Shown piece by piece: positions 40,659 to 63,992 of a stretch of DNA of 64,000 nucleotides. How positions within the stretch are numbered: the stretch's first letter is position 1; each line of letters opens with the position of its first letter. The position numbers and the translations under genes were made by a program. The DNA is from an uncultured bacterium (GTDB taxonomy: Bacteria; Sysuimicrobiota; Sysuimicrobiia; Sysuimicrobiales; Sysuimicrobiaceae): contig CALIMJ010000013.1 in the NCBI GenBank assembly GCA_938028835.1, forward strand, positions 128,320 to 192,319. The letters run 5' to 3'. The notes under the pieces were generated by a model. That model did no database searches, had not been told where the DNA came from, and saw nothing but the letters and a program-made list of their open reading frames with translations.

Positions 40659-40694
40659 GGAAGCCTGGGGTTCGGGGGCCTTCTGCGCGCGGGC

Positions 40695-41129
40695 CTACGC
40701 GTCCTCCAGCCGGTAGTAGATGGTGTCGAACAGGTGCGGGGCTTCCACGAAGATGCCGTAGGCCGTGGCGGCGGCGGTGCCGTCGGGAAAGGAAAGCCGC
40801 CCCAGGGCGCGGACGGCCCGGCCTGTAACGTCCCCGACCCGCGCTTCCACATAGACCGTGCGGTTCAGGGGGATGGGACGGAGATAGTCCACCTCGACGC
40901 GCAGGGCGGCCGCGCGGTAGCCCGCGCGCCACACGGCGGCGCCCATGGCCTCGTCCAGCACCGCGGCGATCATCCCGCCGTGGGCGTGGCCGGGAGGCCC
41001 CTGCTGCGCCTTTCGGAAGGTTACCTCCCCCACGACCACCCCGTCGTCCCGCTGGTAGAACACCACCCCCAGGCTGCCAGGGGATGTCCCGCAGACCGGG
41101 CACGGTCCGTGTTGGGCGAGCCGCCTCAC
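40695..41129 (-). CDS. Hot-dog fold thioesterase (PaaI/4HBT family)
   Basis: HGGMIAAVLDEAMGAA motif; 144 aa; GTG start 5 nt after an SD that overlaps the S8 stop. Confidence 0.8.
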   Translation of the reverse strand: MRRLAQHGPCPVCGTSPGSLGVVFYQRDDGVVVGEVTFRKAQQGPPGHAHGGMIAAVLDEAMGAAVWRAGYRAAALRVEVDYLRPIPLNRTVYVEARVGDVTGRAVRALGRLSFPDGTAAATAYGIFVEAPHLFDTIYYRLEDA

Positions 41130-41136
41130 GACGCCC

Positions 41137-42534
41137 TCACAGGCGGACCGCGTGCACCCCGTCCCACCGGGAGGGCCGCGCGGCCCGTTCCCACAGCCTG
41201 GCCTTCGCCATCTCAGGCGGAAGCCCCGTACTGAGCAACACCGCCACCACGCCGGTGACCAAGCCTGCCGCGAAGGACGTACCTGACCAACGCACGTAGC
41301 GGGACCCCGCCAACACCGCCCCGCAGTCCAGGATGAGATCCTCGCCCGGGGCTCCGAAGTGCGCTTCGTTGCTGAACCACGCGTACCGGTCTGGCTGCGC
41401 GGCGCTGGTGGCCGCCACCGGGATCACCTGCGTCTGGGCGGCCAGGGTGTCTCCGAAGTGGCCGTAGGCGGCAGGCTCCAGGCAGTTCTCGGGCCGGCCC
41501 TGGGACTGGTTGCCGCTGGCCGCTACCAGCACCGCGCGCTGGCGTGCCAGCTCGTCCACCACCGCCAGGAGCGCGCAGGACTCCACCGTCTCCGGCTGCG
41601 ACCGGTCTACCCCCAGGCTCAGGTTGTACACCATCGGAACGGTGACCAGGGGCGTACGGGTGTCGGGGTGCTGCACGGGGGTGCTTGCCAGCTCGTAGAC
41701 CCACCGGAGGGCGTCCGCCAGCTCGTAGGTGGCGGTGGCGAGTTCGTGGTTCAGCAGCGCCACCAGCACCACCCGGGCACCGGGCGCCATGCGGCGGACC
41801 AGCGACGCCACCGTGGCCCCGTGGTGGCCGCGGTAGTCCCGCATCTGCTCCTCGGTGGCCAGTAGGGGCGACCACGCCCTAGCCCGCCAGCGCTCCGCCA
41901 GCCCGCATGGGGAGCCGCCCGGGTCCCGCAGGGGCGCCCAGACCGGGAAGTTCTCCGGCACCCGTTGCGGCCAGTCCACGTACACATCCACGCAGCCCGG
42001 GTCCAGGCGAGGCAGGCCGTCGGGTCTCAACCCGGGGCCGCTGTCCAGGATGACCACGGTGACGCCCTCCCCGCGCGGCCGGGACTTCGCCCGCTCGTAC
42101 TGCAAAAGCCCGATGTGCTCGAAGGCGGGCTGGCTGGCGAAGTCCGTCTCGTCGGCATCGGGCAGCCGGATGGCGGACTCCGGGGTGGGGCTGCCGTGGG
42201 ACACCTCCGCCTGCCCCCGCACCTGCAAATCCAAGGACGCGTGGGCGGACAGCACGGCCTCGGATAGGCGCCGCACCACGTTGGGTTCCGGTTCGTCGCT
42301 TTCCACGACGAACCGCCGCACCGCCCGCAACCACGGAGGGGGCCTACGGACGGGCGGCAGGGGGAGCGCTTCCCACCGCCACACCGTCCCGGACCGCCGG
42401 GAGACGAACACCGTGCGCGGCCTCGGTGGAGGTACGAGGCACCGGACGGGGTGTGACCGCTCCACGGAGTCCAAAAGGACTTCCGGACAGGCCACCACCA
42501 GGTGGCCGCGCAGGCGGTTCCACGCTTCGCGCAT
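41137..42534 (-). CDS. Subtilisin-like serine peptidase (S8), cytoplasmic (no signal peptide)
   Basis: Asp (VVILDSG), His (HGATVASLV), oxyanion Asn (ASGN), Ser (GTSFAAGLVTG); the SD AAGGAGGG lies 5 nt upstream; the ATG is 1 nt after the CHAT stop. Confidence 0.85.
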   Translation of the reverse strand: MREAWNRLRGHLVVACPEVLLDSVERSHPVRCLVPPPRPRTVFVSRRSGTVWRWEALPLPPVRRPPPWLRAVRRFVVESDEPEPNVVRRLSEAVLSAHASLDLQVRGQAEVSHGSPTPESAIRLPDADETDFASQPAFEHIGLLQYERAKSRPRGEGVTVVILDSGPGLRPDGLPRLDPGCVDVYVDWPQRVPENFPVWAPLRDPGGSPCGLAERWRARAWSPLLATEEQMRDYRGHHGATVASLVRRMAPGARVVLVALLNHELATATYELADALRWVYELASTPVQHPDTRTPLVTVPMVYNLSLGVDRSQPETVESCALLAVVDELARQRAVLVAASGNQSQGRPENCLEPAAYGHFGDTLAAQTQVIPVAATSAAQPDRYAWFSNEAHFGAPGEDLILDCGAVLAGSRYVRWSGTSFAAGLVTGVVAVLLSTGLPPEMAKARLWERAARPSRWDGVHAVRL

Positions 42535-42535
42535 G

Positions 42536-43735
42536 TCACCCTCCTTGAGGGCTTCCGTCTAGTGAACGCGCGCAGCCCGTGTTTTCGACGAGCCGGGCCA
42601 GGGGATCGCCCACCACCACGAAACCGGCCCAGTGCCAGGGGTGCTCCCACCGGGCGCGCAGCTGGAGGCCGGCGCTTCGGAGCGCATCCGGGATCCGAGC
42701 GCCACGGCCCAGATGCTCGTACAGCTGCTGCATGAACTGCGCGGTGGAGCCGTCGTGTACCGGCCACAAGGACACCACCACGGCCCGGGCACCGGCGTGG
42801 AGCCACGCGCGTGTGAAGCCGACCAGCTCGTCCCCGGGCAATACCCTGGAGGCCCCGGTGTCGCAGCCGCTCAGGACCACGATCCCACAGCCCGCCTCGG
42901 CTGCCAGGACGTCCGCCGCGGTGACCAGGCCTGCGGTGAGGTAGATAGCGAACAGCAGCGGTGCCTCGGGCCGGAAACGGCAGTGGGCGGCCACATGCAC
43001 CAGCGCCGCGTCCCGCACGGCGGCCAGGAACTCCGCGGGACTGGGGTTCTCGTACAGACGGCCGCCAACTCGCCGGGCCACCCCGCGGGCTTCTGCTACG
43101 GCCCCAGGGAGCTGGCCCCGCAGGCCGTCGGCCACGCACACCGCGGGGCCACGGGCGACCGGTCGCTTCTGCAGCGGGGGAAGCAGCGAGCCTGCGGGCA
43201 CATACACCACTTCCCATCGGTCCCACACACACGCGTGCCCGTCGGCGAAGGCGTGGAAGGGCAGGCCGTGCAGCAGTCCGAAGGGCGCCACCACGAGACG
43301 GCAGTAGGGGCGGAGTTGTGGCTCCAGCGGGGCCACCAGGAGTGCGTGCAGGTCCTCGAGGACCCGATGGGCCTGACGTACGGCGTGCCGGGCGGGGAGC
43401 TGTCCTGCGGCGTAGGCGCGCAGGCCGTTAGCCCACAGGGCCGCTGCGCGGCCCACTTCCCGCGTGTGGCATGCCCTTTGGCAGATCAGGGTCCTGCCCG
43501 GCTCCAGGACGAAGGCCAGGACGTGGTCTCCGGCCGCGAAGTACTCCACGAGGGCCGTGTCGCCGTCCAGTTCCGGCAAAGCCGGCCTGAGGGTGCGCAT
43601 CAGGAAGGGGGCCTGGGAAGGATATGCGGGATCCTTGCAGCTGGAGCCGCCACAGCACTTCCCGGACTCGGGCTTCCAGGTCCGGTTCGCCCGGTTGCCC
43701 GCGAAGGTGCGGCTCGCCAGGATCCAGCTCCACAA
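42536..43735 (-). CDS. CHAT-domain caspase-like protease segment (C-terminal part of a TPR-CHAT protein)
   Basis: Caspase-type His (HVAAHCRF) and Cys (VVLSGCDTG) dyad about 40 aa apart; [14 protein letters not shown] and LLVAPLEPQL...VVAPFGLLHGLPFHAF are typical CHAT N-lobe motifs. Confidence 0.8.
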   Translation of the reverse strand: MWSWILASRTFAGNRANRTWKPESGKCCGGSSCKDPAYPSQAPFLMRTLRPALPELDGDTALVEYFAAGDHVLAFVLEPGRTLICQRACHTREVGRAAALWANGLRAYAAGQLPARHAVRQAHRVLEDLHALLVAPLEPQLRPYCRLVVAPFGLLHGLPFHAFADGHACVWDRWEVVYVPAGSLLPPLQKRPVARGPAVCVADGLRGQLPGAVAEARGVARRVGGRLYENPSPAEFLAAVRDAALVHVAAHCRFRPEAPLLFAIYLTAGLVTAADVLAAEAGCGIVVLSGCDTGASRVLPGDELVGFTRAWLHAGARAVVVSLWPVHDGSTAQFMQQLYEHLGRGARIPDALRSAGLQLRARWEHPWHWAGFVVVGDPLARLVENTGCARSLDGSPQGG

Positions 43736-45389
43736 AGACCTCGCGTCGCTGGGCCTCCAGAAGGCGGTTCAGCTCCTGCACCAAGCGGACGGCCGCCGGG
43801 CTCCGCGGTCGTACCCGGAGCCCGTGGGAGGCCAGCAGCCACGCCATACCCCTCGACTTGGCGCACTGGACCACCTCCCACGCCCGCGCCCACCGCCCCC
43901 GCGCCCAGAGCTCCAGCACCGAGGCCGCGTACAGCTCGGAGAGCTCCGCGAACACCCCCGAACGCAGGTCCGCAGGCAGCCAGGCCAGCAAGCGGTCGGC
44001 CCACCGGACACCGCTCAGCAGGTGCCCGCTGCGCCTTTGCGGCCGCAGAACGCTGAGCCGGCGGTGGGCTGCAGCGCAAAGCCAGGCCGTGCGGTGCCGG
44101 TGCCCCAAGCGGAGAGCCTCCCGGGCGGCCTGGAGGGCGGTGGCGGTGTCCTGCAGCAGGAGGTGGGCGTCGGAGCGCACCAGCAGGGCCCGGCCCGCAC
44201 CCCCGGGGCTGGCGACCTTCGCCCAGGTCCGGTAGGCTTGGTCCGCCAGCGCTACAGCGGCGGAGGGGTCCCCTTCCCGCAACCGAACGGCCGCCAGCTC
44301 GCAGGCGGCCGCGGCCCTCCACGCCTGGCGCCCGGTTCCCTCTAGGGTCTGCAGGGCTTGCTGGAGGAGGTCCCCAGCGCCCTGGAGGTCTCCCCGGTGC
44401 CGGCACGCCACAGCAGCCAGGTAGCGGGCACGGGCCGCTTCGGCCACGAACCCCGCCGCGTCCAGCTCCTGCGCCAGGCGGCGCCCTTCGCGGATCACGC
44501 GCTCCGCCTGTCCCAGGTACAGGCGACACTCCAGAGCGAACAGCCGGTAGGCGGCTCCCGCGGCCGGGACGCCAGCCTCCCGGTAGCGGTCTGCCACCTC
44601 CTCGAAGGCCTGCAGGGCGTGCGCGTACCGGCCCTGACCCAAGTCTGACCAGGCGGTGGCCGCGGCTGACCGCAGGGCCAGGAGGGAGCTGCCGGTAGCC
44701 TCCGCACACCGGGTGGCTTCTTGCAGGGCTCGAGCCGCCTCCTCGTGGCGGCCCAGCTGCGCCAGCAGCAGCCCCGCGTTGTGCTGCACCACCGCTAGGT
44801 CGAGGTCGGCGGACTCCCCGAGGGCCCGGAACCGGTCAGCCGCTTGCGCGTACGCGAGGAGGGCTGCCTCCGTGTCCCCCAGGTACTGGAGCAGGGTGGC
44901 GCGCTGTGCCCGCACGCGGGCCGCGAACAGGCAGGCTCCCGGGTCGGCGGCGAGCACCGGCTCGATGAGGTCCGCCAGCTCCAACGCCTCACGGTAGCGG
45001 CCCTGCCGGAACAGCACGCCGATGCGGCCTACCCCGCACCGTGCGGCGAGAGTGGGCTGGCTGCAGGCCTCGGCCAGCCGCCGCGCGGCCTCGTAGGCTT
45101 CGTGGGCTTCCTCCAACCGCTCGCACCAGAGCAACGCGTTGGCCACCGCCAGGCGCGCCACCACCCGGGCGGCTGGGTCCGCTCCGGCGTCCGCGTAGTC
45201 TGCCAGTTCCCGCGCCCGCTTCAAGGCCTGCTGCGGTTGCCGGTGGGCCAGGCGGTCCACCAGGTCCTTGAGGCGTTCGGCCACCTCCACGCAGGGGGCT
45301 CCAAAGCGCTCCCGCAGGAAGCGCACGGGGCCTCCGCGGGACGCGGCTTCGGCCCACGCTGCCAGCACGCTGGCGCCTTCGGGGGTCAC
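43428..45389 (-). CDS. TPR-repeat segment (N-terminal part of the TPR-CHAT protein; frame breaks near 43607-43611)
   Basis: About 590 aa of tandem Ala/Leu-rich TPR-like helices; it ends with the KSR...LL motif that normally precedes a CHAT domain; the last ~60 codons of the ORF overlap the CHAT ORF in another frame. Confidence 0.7.
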
Positions 45390-45460
45390 GGCGGCGGTGT
45401 TCTTGGACGGCCTGTCCGGTTCCTGCTATGGTGGACGCGAGCTGCGAGCTGGAGGAGGGC

Positions 45461-47521
45461 ATGACCGGACAGCGGCAGGCCCTGGACGTACTGTGCGTGA
45501 ACACCCTGCGGGCGCTGGCCATGGACGCGGTGGAGCGCGCCCAGTCAGGTCACCCGGGTGCGCCCATGGGGTTCGCGGGGCCGGCGTACGTCCTGTGGAC
45601 CCGCTTCCTCCGCCACAACCCCCGCAACCCGCGCTGGCCCGACCGGGACCGGTTTGTGCTGTCGGCGGGGCACGCGTCCATGCTGCTATACGCCCTCCTG
45701 TACCTCACGGGTTACGACCTCACGCTGGACGACCTCAAGAACTTCCGCCAGTGGGGAAGCCGGACACCCGGCCACCCGGAGTTCCGCGCCACCCCCGGGG
45801 TGGAGTGCACCACGGGCCCTCTAGGACAGGGGTTTGCGAACGCGGTGGGCATGGCGATCGCGGAGCGGCACCTGGCCAGCGTGTTCAACCGACCCGGCTA
45901 CGAGATCGTGGACCACTGGACCTACGTGGTGGCCTCGGACGGCGACCTGATGGAGGGCGTGGCGCACGAGGCAGCTTCGTTGGCGGGGCACCTGCAGCTG
46001 GGCAAGCTCGTGTGCCTATACGACGCCAACGGGGTGTCCCTGGCGGGCAGCACGGAGCTCACCTTCACGGAGGACGTGGCTCTCCGGTTCGAGGCCCTGG
46101 GCTGGCACGTCCAGGAGGTGGCGGACGGTAACGACCTGGCCGCGGTGGAGGCCGCGCTGGTGCAGGCACGCGAGGAGCTGGGTCGACCCTCCCTGATCGT
46201 GGTGCGGACCCAGATCGCCTACGGGAGCCCCGGCAAGCAGGGCCGCCACGAGGCGCACGGCGCGCCCCTCGGAGAGGAGGAGGTGCTGCGGGCCAAGCGG
46301 AACCTGGGCTGGCCGCACGAGGAACCCTTTGTGGTTCCGGAGGAGGCGCTGGCGGAGTTCCGGAAGGCCGTGGAAAGGGGCCAACAGCTGGAGGAGGACT
46401 GGCGTCGGCGGTTCGAGGCGTACGCCCGCCAGTATCCGGACCTGGCAGACCAGTGGGAGCAGGCGCAACGGGGGGAGCTCCCGCCGGGTTGGGACCAGGA
46501 CCTACCCGCCTTTACCGCGAGCGACCGGGTGGCCACCCGCAGCGCCTCCGGGAAGGTGCTGAACGTCCTGGCGTCCCGCATCCCGTGGCTGGTGGGGGGT
46601 TCCGCGGACCTGAACCCGTCCACCCAGACCGCGTTGCGGGGGCTGGGCGACTTTCAGAGTCCTCTACGGGCGGTGCGCGACCCGCAGGGTGCGTGCGGGG
46701 GCCCCATGGACTACCGCGGCCGCAACCTGCATTTCGGGGTGCGGGAGCACGCCATGGGTGCGGTGGCCAACGGGATCGCCTACCACGGTGGCCTGAGGCC
46801 GTTCGTCGCCACGTTCCTGGTGTTCTCGGACTACGAACGGCCCGCCATCCGTCTGGCCGCGCTGGCGGAGCTGCCGGTGGTGCATGTGTTCACCCACGAC
46901 TCCGTCCTGGTGGGCGAGGACGGGCCCACCCACCAGCCCGTGGAGCACCTGCCGTCCCTGCGGAGTATCCCGAACCTGTTGGTGATCCGGCCCGCGGACG
47001 CCGCCGAGACCGTGGAAGCCTGGCGGGTGGCCCTGGAGCACAGGGAGGGGCCCGTGGCGCTGGTCCTCACCCGCCAGGCGGTGCCGGTCCTGGATCGCAA
47101 CCGGTACGCGCCTGCGTCCGGCCTGCGGCGCGGAGGCTACGTCCTGGCGGACTGCGACGGGCCGCCGGAGTTGATCCTGATCGGTACGGGTTCGGAGGTC
47201 TGGTTGTGCGTGGAGGCGTACGAGCGGCTGCGGGCGGAGGGCGTGCGGGTCCGGGTGGTGAGCCTGCCCTCCTGGGAGCTGTTCGAGCGCCAGCCCTCCT
47301 CGTACCGGGAGCAGGTCCTGCCGGCCGGTGTAGCCCGCCGGCTGGCGGTGGAGGCGGCCCGGCCCTTCGGTTGGGAGCGCTACGTGGGCTGCGGGGGTCG
47401 GGTGTTGGGAGTGGATCGGTTCGGGGCTTCGGCTCCCTACGGGGTCGTGGCGGAGAAGCTCGGGCTTACCCCGGACCGGGTCTACCGGGCCGCTCGCGAG
47501 CTGCTGGAGCGACCCGCGTGA
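45461..47521 (+). CDS. tkt: Transketolase
   Basis: ThDP motifs ([19 protein letters not shown]); 686 aa from the internal ATG of ORF 45428..47521. Confidence 0.95.
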
Positions 47522-56322: not shown

Positions 56323-57497
56323 GGGGGCCGGTTCCCGTCCTTGCGGTGGTGGGCACTCGCCCGGACGCCGTGAAGATGGCGCCCGTGGTCAAGGCCCTGC
56401 AGCAGGACCCGGACTTCCGGCCCCTGTTGGTGGCTACCGCCCAGCACCGGGAGATGCTGGACCAGGTCCTGCGGTTGTTCGACCTGAAGCCGGACGTGGA
56501 CCTGGACGTGATGCGGCCGCGCCAGAGCCTGGCGGAGGTCACCACCCGGACCCTGGAAGGGCTGGACCGGGTGCTGGCGCGTACCCGTCCCGCCCTGGTG
56601 CTGGTGCAGGGCGACGCCGCGCCTTGCTTCTGTGGGGCCCTGGCTGCGTACTATCACCGGGTCCCCGTGGGTCACGTGGAGGCCGGGCTCCGCACCCGCG
56701 ACAAGTACCGGCCTTTTCCGGAGGAGCTGTACCGGCGGATGACCGCCGCGCTGGCGGACCTACACTTCGCGCCGACCCCGTGGGCCCGGGACAACCTCCT
56801 CCGGGAGGGGTGCGATCCGTCCTCCATCTACGTCACCGGGAACACTGTGATCGACGCCCTGCACGCCATCGGACCCCGCGTCCGCCCGGACGGGCTTCCG
56901 GAGCTGGATCCCCGCAGGCGGCTGTTACTGGTCACCGCGCACCGCCGGGAGAACTGGGGCGAGCCCCTGCGGAACGTGTGCGAGGCGATCCGGGATCTGG
57001 TGTTGCGCTTCCCCGACGTGGAGGTGGTGTTCCCCCTGCACCGCAACCCTGCAGTGCGGGAGGTGGTGATCCCCGCGCTGGAGGGGGCCCCGCGGGTGCA
57101 CCTGCTGGACCCGCCCGACTACGGCCCGTTCGTGTACCTGGAACGCAGGGCCTACCTCATCCTCACGGACTCTGGAGGGGTCCAGGAGGAAGCGCCCGGT
57201 CTGGGTACGCCGGTGCTGGTGCTGCGGGAGACCACCGAACGGCCGGAAGGGGTGGCCGCGGGGGTGGTCCGGCTGGTGGGCACGGACCGCAACCGGGTGG
57301 TGGCGGAGGTCGCCCGGCTCCTCGAGGACCCCGAGGCGTACCGATCCATGGCTGCGGCCACCAACCCGTACGGTGACGGCCGCGCCGCCTGGCGCATCGT
57401 GCAGATCCTGCGGGTGTACTTCGGACTGTCGGACGAGCTGCCGGAGCCGTTCCAGCCGGCGAACCCGCGAGCGTCGCTCCGCGTAGACAAAGAGTAG
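56319..57497 (+). CDS. wecB: UDP-N-acetylglucosamine 2-epimerase (non-hydrolysing)
   Basis: The GTG overlaps the wecA stop; VLAVVGTRPDAVKMAPVV N-terminus and DSGGVQEEAP are typical. Confidence 0.9.
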   Translation: MRGPVPVLAVVGTRPDAVKMAPVVKALQQDPDFRPLLVATAQHREMLDQVLRLFDLKPDVDLDVMRPRQSLAEVTTRTLEGLDRVLARTRPALVLVQGDAAPCFCGALAAYYHRVPVGHVEAGLRTRDKYRPFPEELYRRMTAALADLHFAPTPWARDNLLREGCDPSSIYVTGNTVIDALHAIGPRVRPDGLPELDPRRRLLLVTAHRRENWGEPLRNVCEAIRDLVLRFPDVEVVFPLHRNPAVREVVIPALEGAPRVHLLDPPDYGPFVYLERRAYLILTDSGGVQEEAPGLGTPVLVLRETTERPEGVAAGVVRLVGTDRNRVVAEVARLLEDPEAYRSMAAATNPYGDGRAAWRIVQILRVYFGLSDELPEPFQPANPRASLRVDKE

Positions 57498-59717: not shown

Positions 59718-62700
59718 GTGATGCCGCGGCTGTGGGGGGGGCTTGCGGCGTTCCTGGTGGCGCTTTTGGCCCTGGGGGTGGGGGGCCTAGCCGGGGTGCG
59801 GTCGCCGGCGTTCGAGCGCCACGCCGCGGGGATATTTTCCCGGTGGCTCGCGGAACAACTCGGACGGCCGGTTTCGCTGGAGCGGGTGCAGGTGGGTGCC
59901 AGCCGGATCACCTTCTACCAGGTAAGGGTGCCGGGCCTCCTGCGGGTGGACGAGGTGGAGCTGGACTGGGACCCGATCCTGTTGGTGCGGGAACGGCTGG
60001 CGGGTCGCAGCGGGGCCCAGGCGCTCCGGCGCGTCGGGCTGGTGAAGCCGGTCCTGGTGGTGGCGCGGGGTCCACAGGGCCGGTGGAACATCGAGCAGCT
60101 CGTCCGCGCCCCCGCGCCCGAAGCGGCCCCGGCGGAGCGGCCACGCGCGGAGGTGCACATCGCCGGGGGATCCGTGCAGCTGCTGGACCTCGCCGCAGGA
60201 GGTTTCCGCGGAACCCTGACCGGGATGGAGGGGAGCGTGCGCCTGAGCGACCTGCCTCTGGTGCGGGTCCGGCTCGCCGCGGGAGTCCCCCCGGGGGTGC
60301 CGGGCCAGGTGGAGGTCTCGGGGTGGGTGGACGGGCAGCAGGGGATGCTGGACCTGGCGCTCCGCTTCCAAGGACTTTCCGCTAGGGCGTGGGCCAACTA
60401 CCTCGCATCCGACCCGCGGTGGCGGTGGGAGGCGGGGGTGCTAGGCGGACACGCGCGGATCTACGGGGGTACCCGCAGCCCGCAGGTGGTGGGCGACGTT
60501 CGGGTGGAGCGGGCCGCGGTATCCCTGCCCCAGCAGGGGCTGAAGGTCCAGGACGTCGCGGGAGAGGTGCGCGTGGCGGGCTCGTGGGTCACCCTTCGCT
60601 CCGTTCGGCTGCGTCTGGGCTCCGCCACGGTGCAGGTGTCCGGTGAGCTCCGGATGGCCGGCGGCGGTGCGGTGGACCTGGACCTGCGTTTCCGGGGTGC
60701 GGACCCCTTCCGGTTGCGTCGGCTCGTGGGCTCCACCTTTCCCGTCCGGGGACAGGTGGCAGGACGCGCGCGGGTGGAGGGCCCGCTGGCGGCGGTGCGG
60801 GTCCGGGCCCAGCTCGCGGCGCCGCGCGTCCTGGTGGGACAGGAGCCCCTCCAGGACGTGGCCGCGGAGGTGGACTACCGGCCCGGGACGCTGACCGTGG
60901 CGTCTGCCACCGGCCGTGTGCGCGGGGGCAGGGTGCGTGCGGACGCGGTGGTGGCGCTGAACGAACCGTACCGGTTGATGGCCTCGGCCCGGCTGGACAA
61001 CGTGGACGGGTCCGCGGCCGGGCTCCTGGGGGCCGCGCTGCCGGTCCGGGGGCCGTTCACAGGGGCGGTGGTGGTGGCCGGACCGGTGCGCGATCCTGTG
61101 GTGGCCGGGCTGTTGCGGGGCGGGCCCGGCCAGCTCTTCGGGCAGGGGGTGGACAGCTGGAGTTCCGCTTTCGAGTACGGGGACGGCCGGCTCACCCTGC
61201 ACGCGGCCCGCGCCCGACGGGCCGGGGCGGAGGTGTCCGCGTGGGGCCGCGTGACGGAAGACGCCCTGGACGTACAGGTTGCCACGGCAGGCCTTCGCCT
61301 GGAAGACCTGGGCCGTGCGGTGGGCGTCGCGGTGCCCACCTCCGGTACGGTGTACGCCGCAGGCCGCCTCACCGGCTCCCCGCGCGCGCCCCGTCTTTCC
61401 GCCACCGCGCGGCTGGGGCGGGGTTCGGTGGGGCCGCTGCGGTGGGACGAGGCGGTCCTGCAGGTGGACGCGTCGCGGGACGTCGTGTGGGTGAGGGCCC
61501 TGCACTGGCGGGATGGCGAAGACACCTACCGCGCCTGGGGCCGCGTGGGCCTGCAAGACACGAGCCTGAGTTTTCAGCTGCGCACCCCCGGGGCCCGCGT
61601 GGAGCGGCTGCTGCAGCTGGCGGAGGTCTCGCTGCCCCTGAGCGGGGAGCTGCGTGGGTGGGTGGAGGGGGCGGGCACGGTGCGGGAGCCCGTGCTTCAA
61701 GGGGCGCTACAGCTGTGGGACCTGCGCACGCCGGAGGCGGTCTTCCAGCGGGCGGGCGGCCGTTTCCGGTGGCAGGCCGGTGTGCTGTCCGTCCAGGAGG
61801 CCGAGCTGCACTCCGCGGCCTTCGACGCCCAGCTGCAGGGAGCGGTGAGCACTTCCGGCGACCTGCAGCTGAGCTTTGTTGCGGACCCGGTCCGGCTGGA
61901 AGCCCTCCCGCAGCTGCGGAACCCGTTCCTGCACCTCCAGGGTGCGGTGCGCGTACGGGGCGAGGTGACGGGGAAGTCCCGCGAGCCGGTGGTGCGCGCC
62001 GAGGTAACCGGCACCCGGCTGAGGGTGAACGGGGAGGTCTTCGACGGCGTGGAGGGAGCGGTGCGGTGGGCCGGCGGGACGCTGGAGGCAGCGCCGCTGC
62101 GCCTGCGCCGCCGTCAGGCCACCTACGTCCTGGAAGGCCGGCTGCAGCTCGTGGAGGATCCTGTGGCGGACCTGGCCCTGGATGTCCGGGACGCAGACCT
62201 CCCCACCCTGTTGGGAGTGGCGGGGGTGTCGGTGGACGCGGACGGCAGGCTGTCGGGCCGTCTGGTCCTATCGGGTCCGCTGTCGCGTCCGAGGGCCCAG
62301 CTGGACGTGCAGCTGGCAGACGGGGCTTTCCGGGGTTACCGGTTTTCCGCGGGCACCGGGAGGGTGGTGCTGGAGGACGGGCGGGTGTCGCTGCAGGAGG
62401 TGGAGCTGGTGGCGGGCCGTGGCCGGTTGCGGGCGGAGGGTTACGTCAGCCTGCGCGGGCCGAGTGAGGTGGAGGTGGCCGGCCTGGGTCTGGAAGCGGC
62501 CGCGGTGTCCACCCTGGCGCGCCTGCGCACGCCCTTGGTGGGCACCCTGGACTTTACCCTGCAGCTTTCGGGGACCCTGGACAATCCCACCGCGGGTCTG
62601 GCCCTGGAGGTGCGGGATGTGGGTGCTGCAGGCGCGCAGGCGGACCGGCTCACGGCCCAAGCCATCTACCGGGATGGATTCCTCGAGCTGGAGCAGCTGC

Positions 62701-63992
62701 TGCTGGAAGAGGACGGGCAACGGGTCCGCGCCCGCGGCCGGTTGCCGCTCCGGCTGCGGGAGCTGGCAGCAGACCCCCGAGGACCCGTGGACTTCGTAGC
62801 CAGCACGGACCGCGCGGACCTGGGGATCCTGCGCCTGTTGCCGTTCGTGGAGTCCGCGGATGGCCCCCTGGAGGCCAGCCTGAGGATTGGCGGCACGGTA
62901 ACTTCCCCCCAGCTGGAGGGTTTCGTCCGCACTCGGGGCGGGCGGGTGAAGCTGGCGGGCGTGAATCCCGCGTTGGAGGATCTGCAGGTGGAGGTAGGCT
63001 TCGACCACGCGGCCGCGACGCTGCGGCAGCTGCGGGCAGGCCTGGGAGGTGGGGTGGTGGAGGCGACCGGCGAGGCCAGCTTCGAGGCCCTGCGATTGCA
63101 GCGATACCGACTGGCGGCCTCCGCCCGGTCCGCCCGAGTGGAGATCCCGCCGTACTTCCGTGGGGTCGTGGACGGCACGGGGGAGGTCACGGGGACGCTA
63201 CAGCGGGCGCGGGTCAGCGGCCGCCTGACCCTGTCGGCAGGGGAGCTGGTGGTGGCGGCATCGACGGGGGCCGGGGGCGGCAATGCCTTTCCCGTGGACC
63301 TAGACCTGGAGCTGGTGGCGGGCCAGGGACTGTCCGTGGTGGCCGGGCCGGTGCGTCTGCAGGTGGGTGGCGGGCTTCGCGTAGGGGGGAGCCTGAGCAG
63401 CCCCGCGCTTTCGGGGACCGTCACGGGCCGTGGCGGCGAGTACCGGGCTTTCGGCACCACCTTCGTGGTGGAGGAGGGTGTGGCGGTCTTCCAGGAGTTC
63501 CGGGGCACGGAGCCGGTGCTGAGCGCGCGGGCCAGCACCCGCGTGGGCGACGTGACGGTGTTCGTGTACCTGTCCGGCACCCCCGGGCAGATGCAGATAC
63601 GGCTTGCGAGCAACCCGGAGCTGCCCCACGACCGGATCGTGCAGTTGCTGGCGGCGCAAGCGGGGATCGAGCGGGCGCTGGGCGGGGAGGTGGAGGCGGC
63701 GCTGCGACAGCAGCTGGCGCGGTTCCTGCTGGGCGAGTTCGAGCAACGCGTGCGTCAGCTGCTGGGGCTGGCGGAGCTGCGGATCGAGTACGACTTCGAA
63801 AGACCCCTGCGGCTTCGGCTCGGCCGGTTCCTGCTGCAGGACCTGTACCTGACCCTGACGACGGTGTTCGATACCGAGACCCGGTTCCTGTGGGCGCTGG
63901 AGTACCGGTTCGCCCGGCACTACGCGCTGGCGTTCAGCCACGACACCGCGGGGATCTGGATGATCCTGCTGCGGGCAAACTTCACGTGGTGA
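59718..63992 (+). CDS. tamB: TamB-like translocation and assembly module protein (AsmA-like, DUF490 C-terminus)
   Basis: 1424 aa; N-terminal TM anchor; long beta-rich repeats; the C-terminal DUF490 signature is RLGRFLLQDLYLTLTTVFDTETRFLWALEYRF. Confidence 0.8.
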   Translation: MMPRLWGGLAAFLVALLALGVGGLAGVRSPAFERHAAGIFSRWLAEQLGRPVSLERVQVGASRITFYQVRVPGLLRVDEVELDWDPILLVRERLAGRSGAQALRRVGLVKPVLVVARGPQGRWNIEQLVRAPAPEAAPAERPRAEVHIAGGSVQLLDLAAGGFRGTLTGMEGSVRLSDLPLVRVRLAAGVPPGVPGQVEVSGWVDGQQGMLDLALRFQGLSARAWANYLASDPRWRWEAGVLGGHARIYGGTRSPQVVGDVRVERAAVSLPQQGLKVQDVAGEVRVAGSWVTLRSVRLRLGSATVQVSGELRMAGGGAVDLDLRFRGADPFRLRRLVGSTFPVRGQVAGRARVEGPLAAVRVRAQLAAPRVLVGQEPLQDVAAEVDYRPGTLTVASATGRVRGGRVRADAVVALNEPYRLMASARLDNVDGSAAGLLGAALPVRGPFTGAVVVAGPVRDPVVAGLLRGGPGQLFGQGVDSWSSAFEYGDGRLTLHAARARRAGAEVSAWGRVTEDALDVQVATAGLRLEDLGRAVGVAVPTSGTVYAAGRLTGSPRAPRLSATARLGRGSVGPLRWDEAVLQVDASRDVVWVRALHWRDGEDTYRAWGRVGLQDTSLSFQLRTPGARVERLLQLAEVSLPLSGELRGWVEGAGTVREPVLQGALQLWDLRTPEAVFQRAGGRFRWQAGVLSVQEAELHSAAFDAQLQGAVSTSGDLQLSFVADPVRLEALPQLRNPFLHLQGAVRVRGEVTGKSREPVVRAEVTGTRLRVNGEVFDGVEGAVRWAGGTLEAAPLRLRRRQATYVLEGRLQLVEDPVADLALDVRDADLPTLLGVAGVSVDADGRLSGRLVLSGPLSRPRAQLDVQLADGAFRGYRFSAGTGRVVLEDGRVSLQEVELVAGRGRLRAEGYVSLRGPSEVEVAGLGLEAAAVSTLARLRTPLVGTLDFTLQLSGTLDNPTAGLALEVRDVGAAGAQADRLTAQAIYRDGFLELEQLLLEEDGQRVRARGRLPLRLRELAADPRGPVDFVASTDRADLGILRLLPFVESADGPLEASLRIGGTVTSPQLEGFVRTRGGRVKLAGVNPALEDLQVEVGFDHAAATLRQLRAGLGGGVVEATGEASFEALRLQRYRLAASARSARVEIPPYFRGVVDGTGEVTGTLQRARVSGRLTLSAGELVVAASTGAGGGNAFPVDLDLELVAGQGLSVVAGPVRLQVGGGLRVGGSLSSPALSGTVTGRGGEYRAFGTTFVVEEGVAVFQEFRGTEPVLSARASTRVGDVTVFVYLSGTPGQMQIRLASNPELPHDRIVQLLAAQAGIERALGGEVEAALRQQLARFLLGEFEQRVRQLLGLAELRIEYDFERPLRLRLGRFLLQDLYLTLTTVFDTETRFLWALEYRFARHYALAFSHDTAGIWMILLRANFTW

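Follow-up and report, generated by a model that had tools for sequence, protein, structure and literature searches.

Within the Pfam CHAT family, the TPR-CHAT proteins are caspase-like clan CD peptidases in which an N-terminal TPR array is combined with a C-terminal CHAT domain that carries a predicted catalytic dyad. One TPR-CHAT protease, Csx29, is a component of the type III-E CRISPR system (Craspase; PMC9935389, PMC9729208, PMC10028731). The locus described here lies in a 64,000-nucleotide stretch of DNA, hereafter the window, and probably represents a chromosomal TPR-CHAT (caspase-like protease) gene of a thermophilic bacterium belonging to Candidatus Sysuimicrobiota, the former CSP1-3 (phylum background in PMC11604079). 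Its domain order and predicted dyad are those of the TPR-CHAT proteins in Pfam, from which it differs in that its two halves occupy different reading frames in the assembly.

The resemblance to Csx29 comprises the overall TPR and CHAT architecture, with CHAT domains that are remotely homologous. A profile of the orthologues, compared with PDB chains, matched the Csx29 chains 8d9f, 7x8a and 7y83 with E values of about 3e-6 in the CHAT domain only, and a single-sequence phmmer search of PDB chains gave no hits; there is thus no full-length similarity between the two. Also unlike Csx29, the gene has a transketolase gene and an S8 peptidase gene as its immediate neighbours in place of Cas7-11/gRAMP, and the locus is vertically conserved. 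No CRISPR-like tandem array was found in the 64-kb window. On these grounds (no full-length similarity, no array, no Cas7-11 neighbour) we rejected an identification as Csx29. An assignment to a defence system by PADLOC was likewise rejected, its matches being weak and partial (BovA, 7.6e-6; subtilase, 1.2e-6).

Two minus-strand ORFs cover the locus. The TPR ORF, at 43428..45389, comprises 653 aa counted from the first possible start and matches TPR_12 (E=7.2e-19), and the CHAT ORF, at 42536..43735, comprises 399 aa, of which residues 124-377 match the CHAT profile (PF12770) with E=1.6e-49 and 169.3 bits, against a gathering score of 24. The initial annotation had described these ORFs as overlapping by about 300 nt in different frames, and we indeed measure an overlap of 308 nt, with the CHAT frame +1 relative to the TPR frame. 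Such a long overlap arises because out-of-frame stops are rare at a G+C content of 72%, which is that of the genome (68-75% in the window). By frame analysis, the removal of one base fuses the two ORFs. The profile of G+C by codon position is in agreement with a shift in this region, since the phase with low GC2 switches between about 43660 and 43600; the profile is too coarse to distinguish 43636 from 43609, and the site of the lesion was therefore decided by alignments.

A search with the fused protein model derived from the initial annotation retrieved about 20 full-length relatives of 908-957 aa and 46-99% identity, each encoded by a single ORF and each containing both TPR and CHAT regions. 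These originate from MAGs of Candidatus Sysuimicrobiota, including Ca. Tepidifontimicrobium thermophilum (86% identity), and from MAGs labelled Armatimonadota. The TPR array and the CHAT domain reside on one polypeptide in all of the relatives, and in the window as assembled they do not. The suggestion that the two ORFs must specify one protein, for which a comparison with orthologues had been proposed as the check, is in this way upheld. Judged from the sequence comparisons, the two ORFs are the halves of one TPR-CHAT gene that is interrupted by one extra nucleotide. The model used as the query had been repaired by deleting one C from a C5 run; this leaves an open frame of 950 aa and served for the search, and its junction is wrong. 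The predicted peptide (...RISFPGPFLM...) departs over 9 residues from that of P0001, the closest relative of the model.

P0001 (929 aa) is encoded on L001 (ENA ERZ6863514, a 72-kb contig), which aligns with window 32536-55326 at 99.83% identity, with 38 substitutions and exactly one 1-nt gap. A second, independent assembly, L002 (Logan, run ERR9287632), is 99.97% identical to the window and has the 929-aa gene intact (P0099). The only differences between this copy of the gene and that of the window are a substitution at 45062 and the same 1-nt gap. In both comparisons (22.8 kb with L001 and 21.4 kb with L002), the only frameshifting gap is the extra A at 43635/43636. In the intact relatives the gene measures 2,790 nt, that is, 929 codons and a stop. 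The features of the disrupted gene and of its downstream neighbour are as follows.

42536..45326, minus strand: the complete TPR-CHAT gene in its disrupted form, 2,791 nt long (2,790 nt in intact relatives)
45326-45324, minus strand: likely GTG start codon, with GGAGG ahead of it; the starts of P0001 and P0099 (MRFLRERF) map here
43635..43636, minus strand: the lesion, minus-strand AA (plus-strand TT) in place of the single A of the intact alleles, from alignments with L001 and L002
43428..43634, minus strand: out-of-frame tail of 68 missense codons (ending SGPVG), with the stop at 43430-43428
43607..43611, minus strand: G5 run (C5 on the minus strand), in the wild-type state and read in frame as GCC CCC TTC (Ala-Pro-Phe); not the lesion
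42536..43633, minus strand: stranded 3′ part, D565-G929, 365 codons and stop, in the +1 frame; linker and CHAT domain
42983..42985, minus strand: codon of the predicted catalytic His, H781, in the motif VHVAAHC, invariant in 16 orthologues
42863..42865, minus strand: codon of the predicted catalytic Cys, C821, in the motif VVLSGCDT, invariant in 16 orthologues
41137..42534, minus strand: downstream Peptidase_S8 (subtilase) gene, 465 aa, its product with an N-terminal extension of roughly 150 aa; the CHAT stop and the ATG of this gene are 1 nt apart

Either of the two As at 43636/43635 can be taken as the extra base, which falls in codon 564, CAA in the window and CAG in the relatives. The minus strand reads ...GCAAGGATCC... 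in the window and ...GCAGGATCC... in the intact relatives, so that the codons CAG CTG CAA GGA TCC stand against CAG CTG CAG GAT CCC; across the orthologues the DNA at this site is CAG CTG/TTG CAG GAT/GAC CCC. The aligned segment is CAGCTGCAAGGATCCC in the window and CAGCTGCAGGATCCC in L001, and in longer context the two alleles are ...CTGCAGGATCC... and ...CTGCAAGGATCC.... The true protein junction, as read across it in P0001 and P0099, follows ...WRLQLQ, with LQLQDPAYPSQ as the junction peptide of the intact product, and since P0001 continues directly through this point, the change of frame must come immediately after LQLQ and not at the C5 run. The lesion had been placed between 43590 and 43640, an interval that does contain the extra A; the GGGGG run at plus-strand 43607-43611, which had been named as its site, is present as described and lies elsewhere, with the lesion 24-29 nt upstream of it. 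This run has five bases in the window and also in the intact genes of L001 and L002 and of L003 and L005, two relatives at the species level, and its identity in these four relatives indicates that five bases is the wild-type length.

A cluster of substitutions accompanies this region, as five of the 38 differences from L001 are bunched within 145 nt just downstream of the indel (43478-43622). We considered local decay or recombination as an explanation for the cluster and rejected it. The stretch corresponds to the variable, poorly conserved linker between the TPR and CHAT regions (EPxxxxxxxRxC in the orthologue consensus), and L002 has the same bases as the window there and is nonetheless intact, which argues that the cluster is unrelated to the frameshift.

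Translation from the GTG at 45326 yields 564 native residues, comprising the TPR array and the KSR..LL segment, followed by 68 missense residues and the stop at 43430-43428. The extra A:T base pair at 43635/43636, in codon 564/565 of a gene normally of 929 codons, would therefore prevent the fusion of TPR sensor and CHAT protease from being made, and would leave the CHAT half, whose 365 codons occupy 43633..42539, stranded in the +1 frame. The protein specified by this half is identical to the corresponding part of P0099, with zero nucleotide differences from L002, and both caspase-like residues, H781 and C821, are conserved in the window as in the 16 orthologues, with catalysis predicted only. 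The gene caller of the public collection divides the split locus into products of 632 aa and 306 aa, the latter beginning at residue 624 of the intact protein and lacking the conserved linker residues 565-623. When the sequence was read directly, no convincing ribosome-binding site was seen for an internal start of the CHAT half, and a scan of 41000-45600 for promoters and terminators found nothing, with no sign of an internal CHAT promoter. The CHAT half is thus probably not expressed. The downstream S8 protease gene, by comparison, keeps its own ribosome-binding site: an AAGGAGG Shine-Dalgarno sequence lies inside the end of the CHAT gene, and S8 expression need not be affected by the frameshift for this reason.

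A change of 1 nt that switches the reading frame is what this locus has in common with the simple-sequence contingency loci, in which homopolymers mediate phase variation, as in Neisseria, Haemophilus and Campylobacter; it is the sole shared feature. Slipped-strand variation at the G5 run would turn the protease on and off, and the run does sit in the overlap, where the deletion of one G formally joins the frames. In contingency loci the change occurs within a repeat tract; here it lies outside any repeat tract, at a position where the intact allele has a single A, and the nearby G5 tract is of invariant length in the window and its four intact relatives, in which it is read in frame. Five bases would also be short for a contingency tract. 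Moreover, runs of this kind are commonplace in a genome of 72% G+C: the window holds 275 G/C runs of at least five bases, one per 233 nt, and about 1.5 would be expected by chance in the 341-nt stretch that is open in both frames. Phase variation at this run is consequently a highly improbable account of the split. Scarcely more can be said for programmed +1 ribosomal frameshifting or transcriptional slippage as the route by which the split gene gives a full-length protein. Since CAA and CAG both encode Gln, a ribosome moving +1 just past CAA(564) would make exactly the wild-type protein, but all orthologues are in frame, the relatives of 99.8-99.97% identity among them, so that the need for a shift is not retained among them. 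When CUG CAA GGA UCC was judged against prfB-type and dnaX/IS-type recoding sites, it was found to contain neither an X XXY YYZ heptamer nor a motif of the CUU UGA type, and long A/U runs are absent from it; CAA GGA is, to our knowledge, not among the slippery or hungry-codon motifs; as read from the sequence, there is also no A/T run at the site long enough for transcriptional slippage. A natural arrangement of two genes, with separate TPR and CHAT proteins, agrees with the two products assigned by the gene caller. Against it stand the 308-nt overlap, a first product whose 68-residue tail is the orthologous linker read out of frame, a second product that omits conserved residues, and the fusion of the two parts in all 20 orthologues, and we regard this arrangement as very improbable as well. 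Together, all of the programmed or structural readings keep at most a very small probability. Because a single A has become AA where no slippage tract exists, phase variation and programmed frameshifting are, from comparison of the alleles, effectively excluded, and we find no evidence of a new regulatory mechanism at the split locus.

The alignments demonstrate where the lesion lies and what it is, that the nearest relatives lack it, and that it has no repeat substrate. It is an ordinary private single-base frameshift in a conserved gene, explained either by a null mutation of very recent date or by an error in the consensus. In having a one-base indel, two overlapping ORFs and intact nearest relatives, it matches a frameshifted gene, recent pseudogene or consensus indel of the kind found in MAGs, and we see no difference from such cases. 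Two of the three causes offered in the initial annotation, a sequencing or assembly indel and an authentic inactivating mutation, accordingly survive, and the third, slippage-based phase variation, is left without a substrate. Were the gene intact in the cells, the extra A would have entered at the stage of sequencing, assembly or polishing, for instance where the metagenome was strain-heterogeneous. Consistent with such an artefact, the intact allele is the one carried by two independently assembled, near-identical strains, and the frameshifted allele is confined to a single contig of 219,766 bp, the only source of the 632-aa and 306-aa products among about 15 billion collected proteins. A pattern covering either allele, GGCTCCAGCTGCA(N0-1)GGATCCCGCATA, had 0 matches when scanned in JGI metagenome contigs. 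Frameshift-like breaks are, in addition, known in low-coverage MAGs of this group. In L004:10183-11464 (MAG contig PSLI01000028, coverage 2.9), the orthologue of the AMP-dependent ligase is matched in three separate pieces, which suggests frameshifts in that assembly. The TPR-CHAT gene is also conserved and syntenic across the phylum; its persistence beside its S8 partner down to 46-47% identity points to purifying selection, under which a fixed knockout is less to be expected a priori. What speaks against an artefact is the cleanness of the remaining assembly and the placement of the insertion. The comparison with near-identical DNA covered 43,524 nt of the window (11.6-24.3 kb and 30.7-61.6 kb) and drew on five contigs (L001, L002, L007, L008 and L009); the runs from which near-identical contigs were assembled include ERR9287632 and ERR9287617. 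Over these 43.5 kb, none of 719 homopolymers of at least 4 bases (197 of them of at least 5 and 36 of at least 6) differs in length, and the only indels are the extra A, one of 3 nt at 57495 and the 373-bp deletion of L002, with no other that shifts a frame. The assembly is thus without a platform-type indel signature, and the insertion is not in a homopolymer, the setting in which platform indel errors concentrate. A consensus artefact is accordingly a serious contender, to which we assign a probability somewhat short of even. The constancy of the 719 homopolymers leads us to lean slightly toward a real variant, and the 373-bp deletion, taken as real structural variation next door in the same population, points the same way. 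The stranded CHAT half matches the intact allele without a difference and retains His781 and Cys821, as would be expected of a very recent event; the lack of further downstream decay, with no substitution relative to L002, fits an artefact equally well. We consider the chances about even that the sampled population, or at least a part of it, carries a genuine loss-of-function allele. The insertion would then be an unprogrammed and very recent event, with the extra base present in the DNA of the cells and not in the consensus alone.

The 3-nt indel at window 57495 consists of an AGG that L008 and L009 carry and the window lacks. It falls right at the end of the Epimerase_2 gene or else in the intergenic spacer between that gene and the biotin-lipoyl gene, and apart from it and the extra A no small indel was seen across the 43.5 kb compared. 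Elsewhere in the window, 59718-63992 on the plus strand is an open frame of more than 1,424 aa that has a good codon-position G+C signal and runs off the window end. The corresponding genes of L008 have no Pfam hit on record.

The gene order of a divergent transketolase gene, TPR-CHAT and Peptidase_S8 is found in all orthologous loci inspected (L001-L006 and L010-L012), as far as that of P0018, with 46-47% identity, and the TPR-CHAT and S8 genes look like a chromosomal pair passed on vertically and not like a mobile island. An S8 gene also follows two distant TPR-CHAT homologues of 29-34% identity in the unrelated contexts of L013 and L014, with one gene between the two in L013 and a 480-nt gap in L014. 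The S8 proteins of these two loci are only 23-30% identical to that of the window, and genes for ECF-type sigma-70 factors lie near both homologues. CHAT and subtilase may constitute a conserved two-protease module, of which a limited literature search found no description. Directly downstream of the S8 gene in the window is a 4HBT thioesterase gene (40695..41129, minus strand), which is absent from L004 and L006 and partially matched in L005. L002 (ERR9287632) lacks window 40670-41042, the 373 bp already mentioned, and with it most of the 4HBT gene; this deletion could be either real structural variation or a collapse in the Logan assembly.

For annotation, these findings imply a single TPR-CHAT gene in which one base at 43635/43636 shifts the frame, and neither two genes nor a homopolymer switch; models of the protein should be built on P0099 or P0001, the 929-aa sequences from intact relatives. 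The recurrent pairing of TPR-CHAT with an S8 subtilase is possibly worth a study of its own. If the allele is not real, it is a consensus error to be fixed. If it is real, it would be a very recent natural knockout of a protease gene conserved throughout the phylum, and would be of modest interest to those who study the biology of this uncultivated thermophile. A more specific reading, which we consider unlikely, is that a genuine knockout allele segregates within a population of hot-spring Sysuimicrobiota and strikes the sensor-protease of the TPR-CHAT and S8-subtilase pair. Such a knockout in one strain, together with the deletion in the adjacent 4HBT gene of another, would hint that the two-protease module is costly or conditionally dispensable, in the manner of toxic or defence-like systems.
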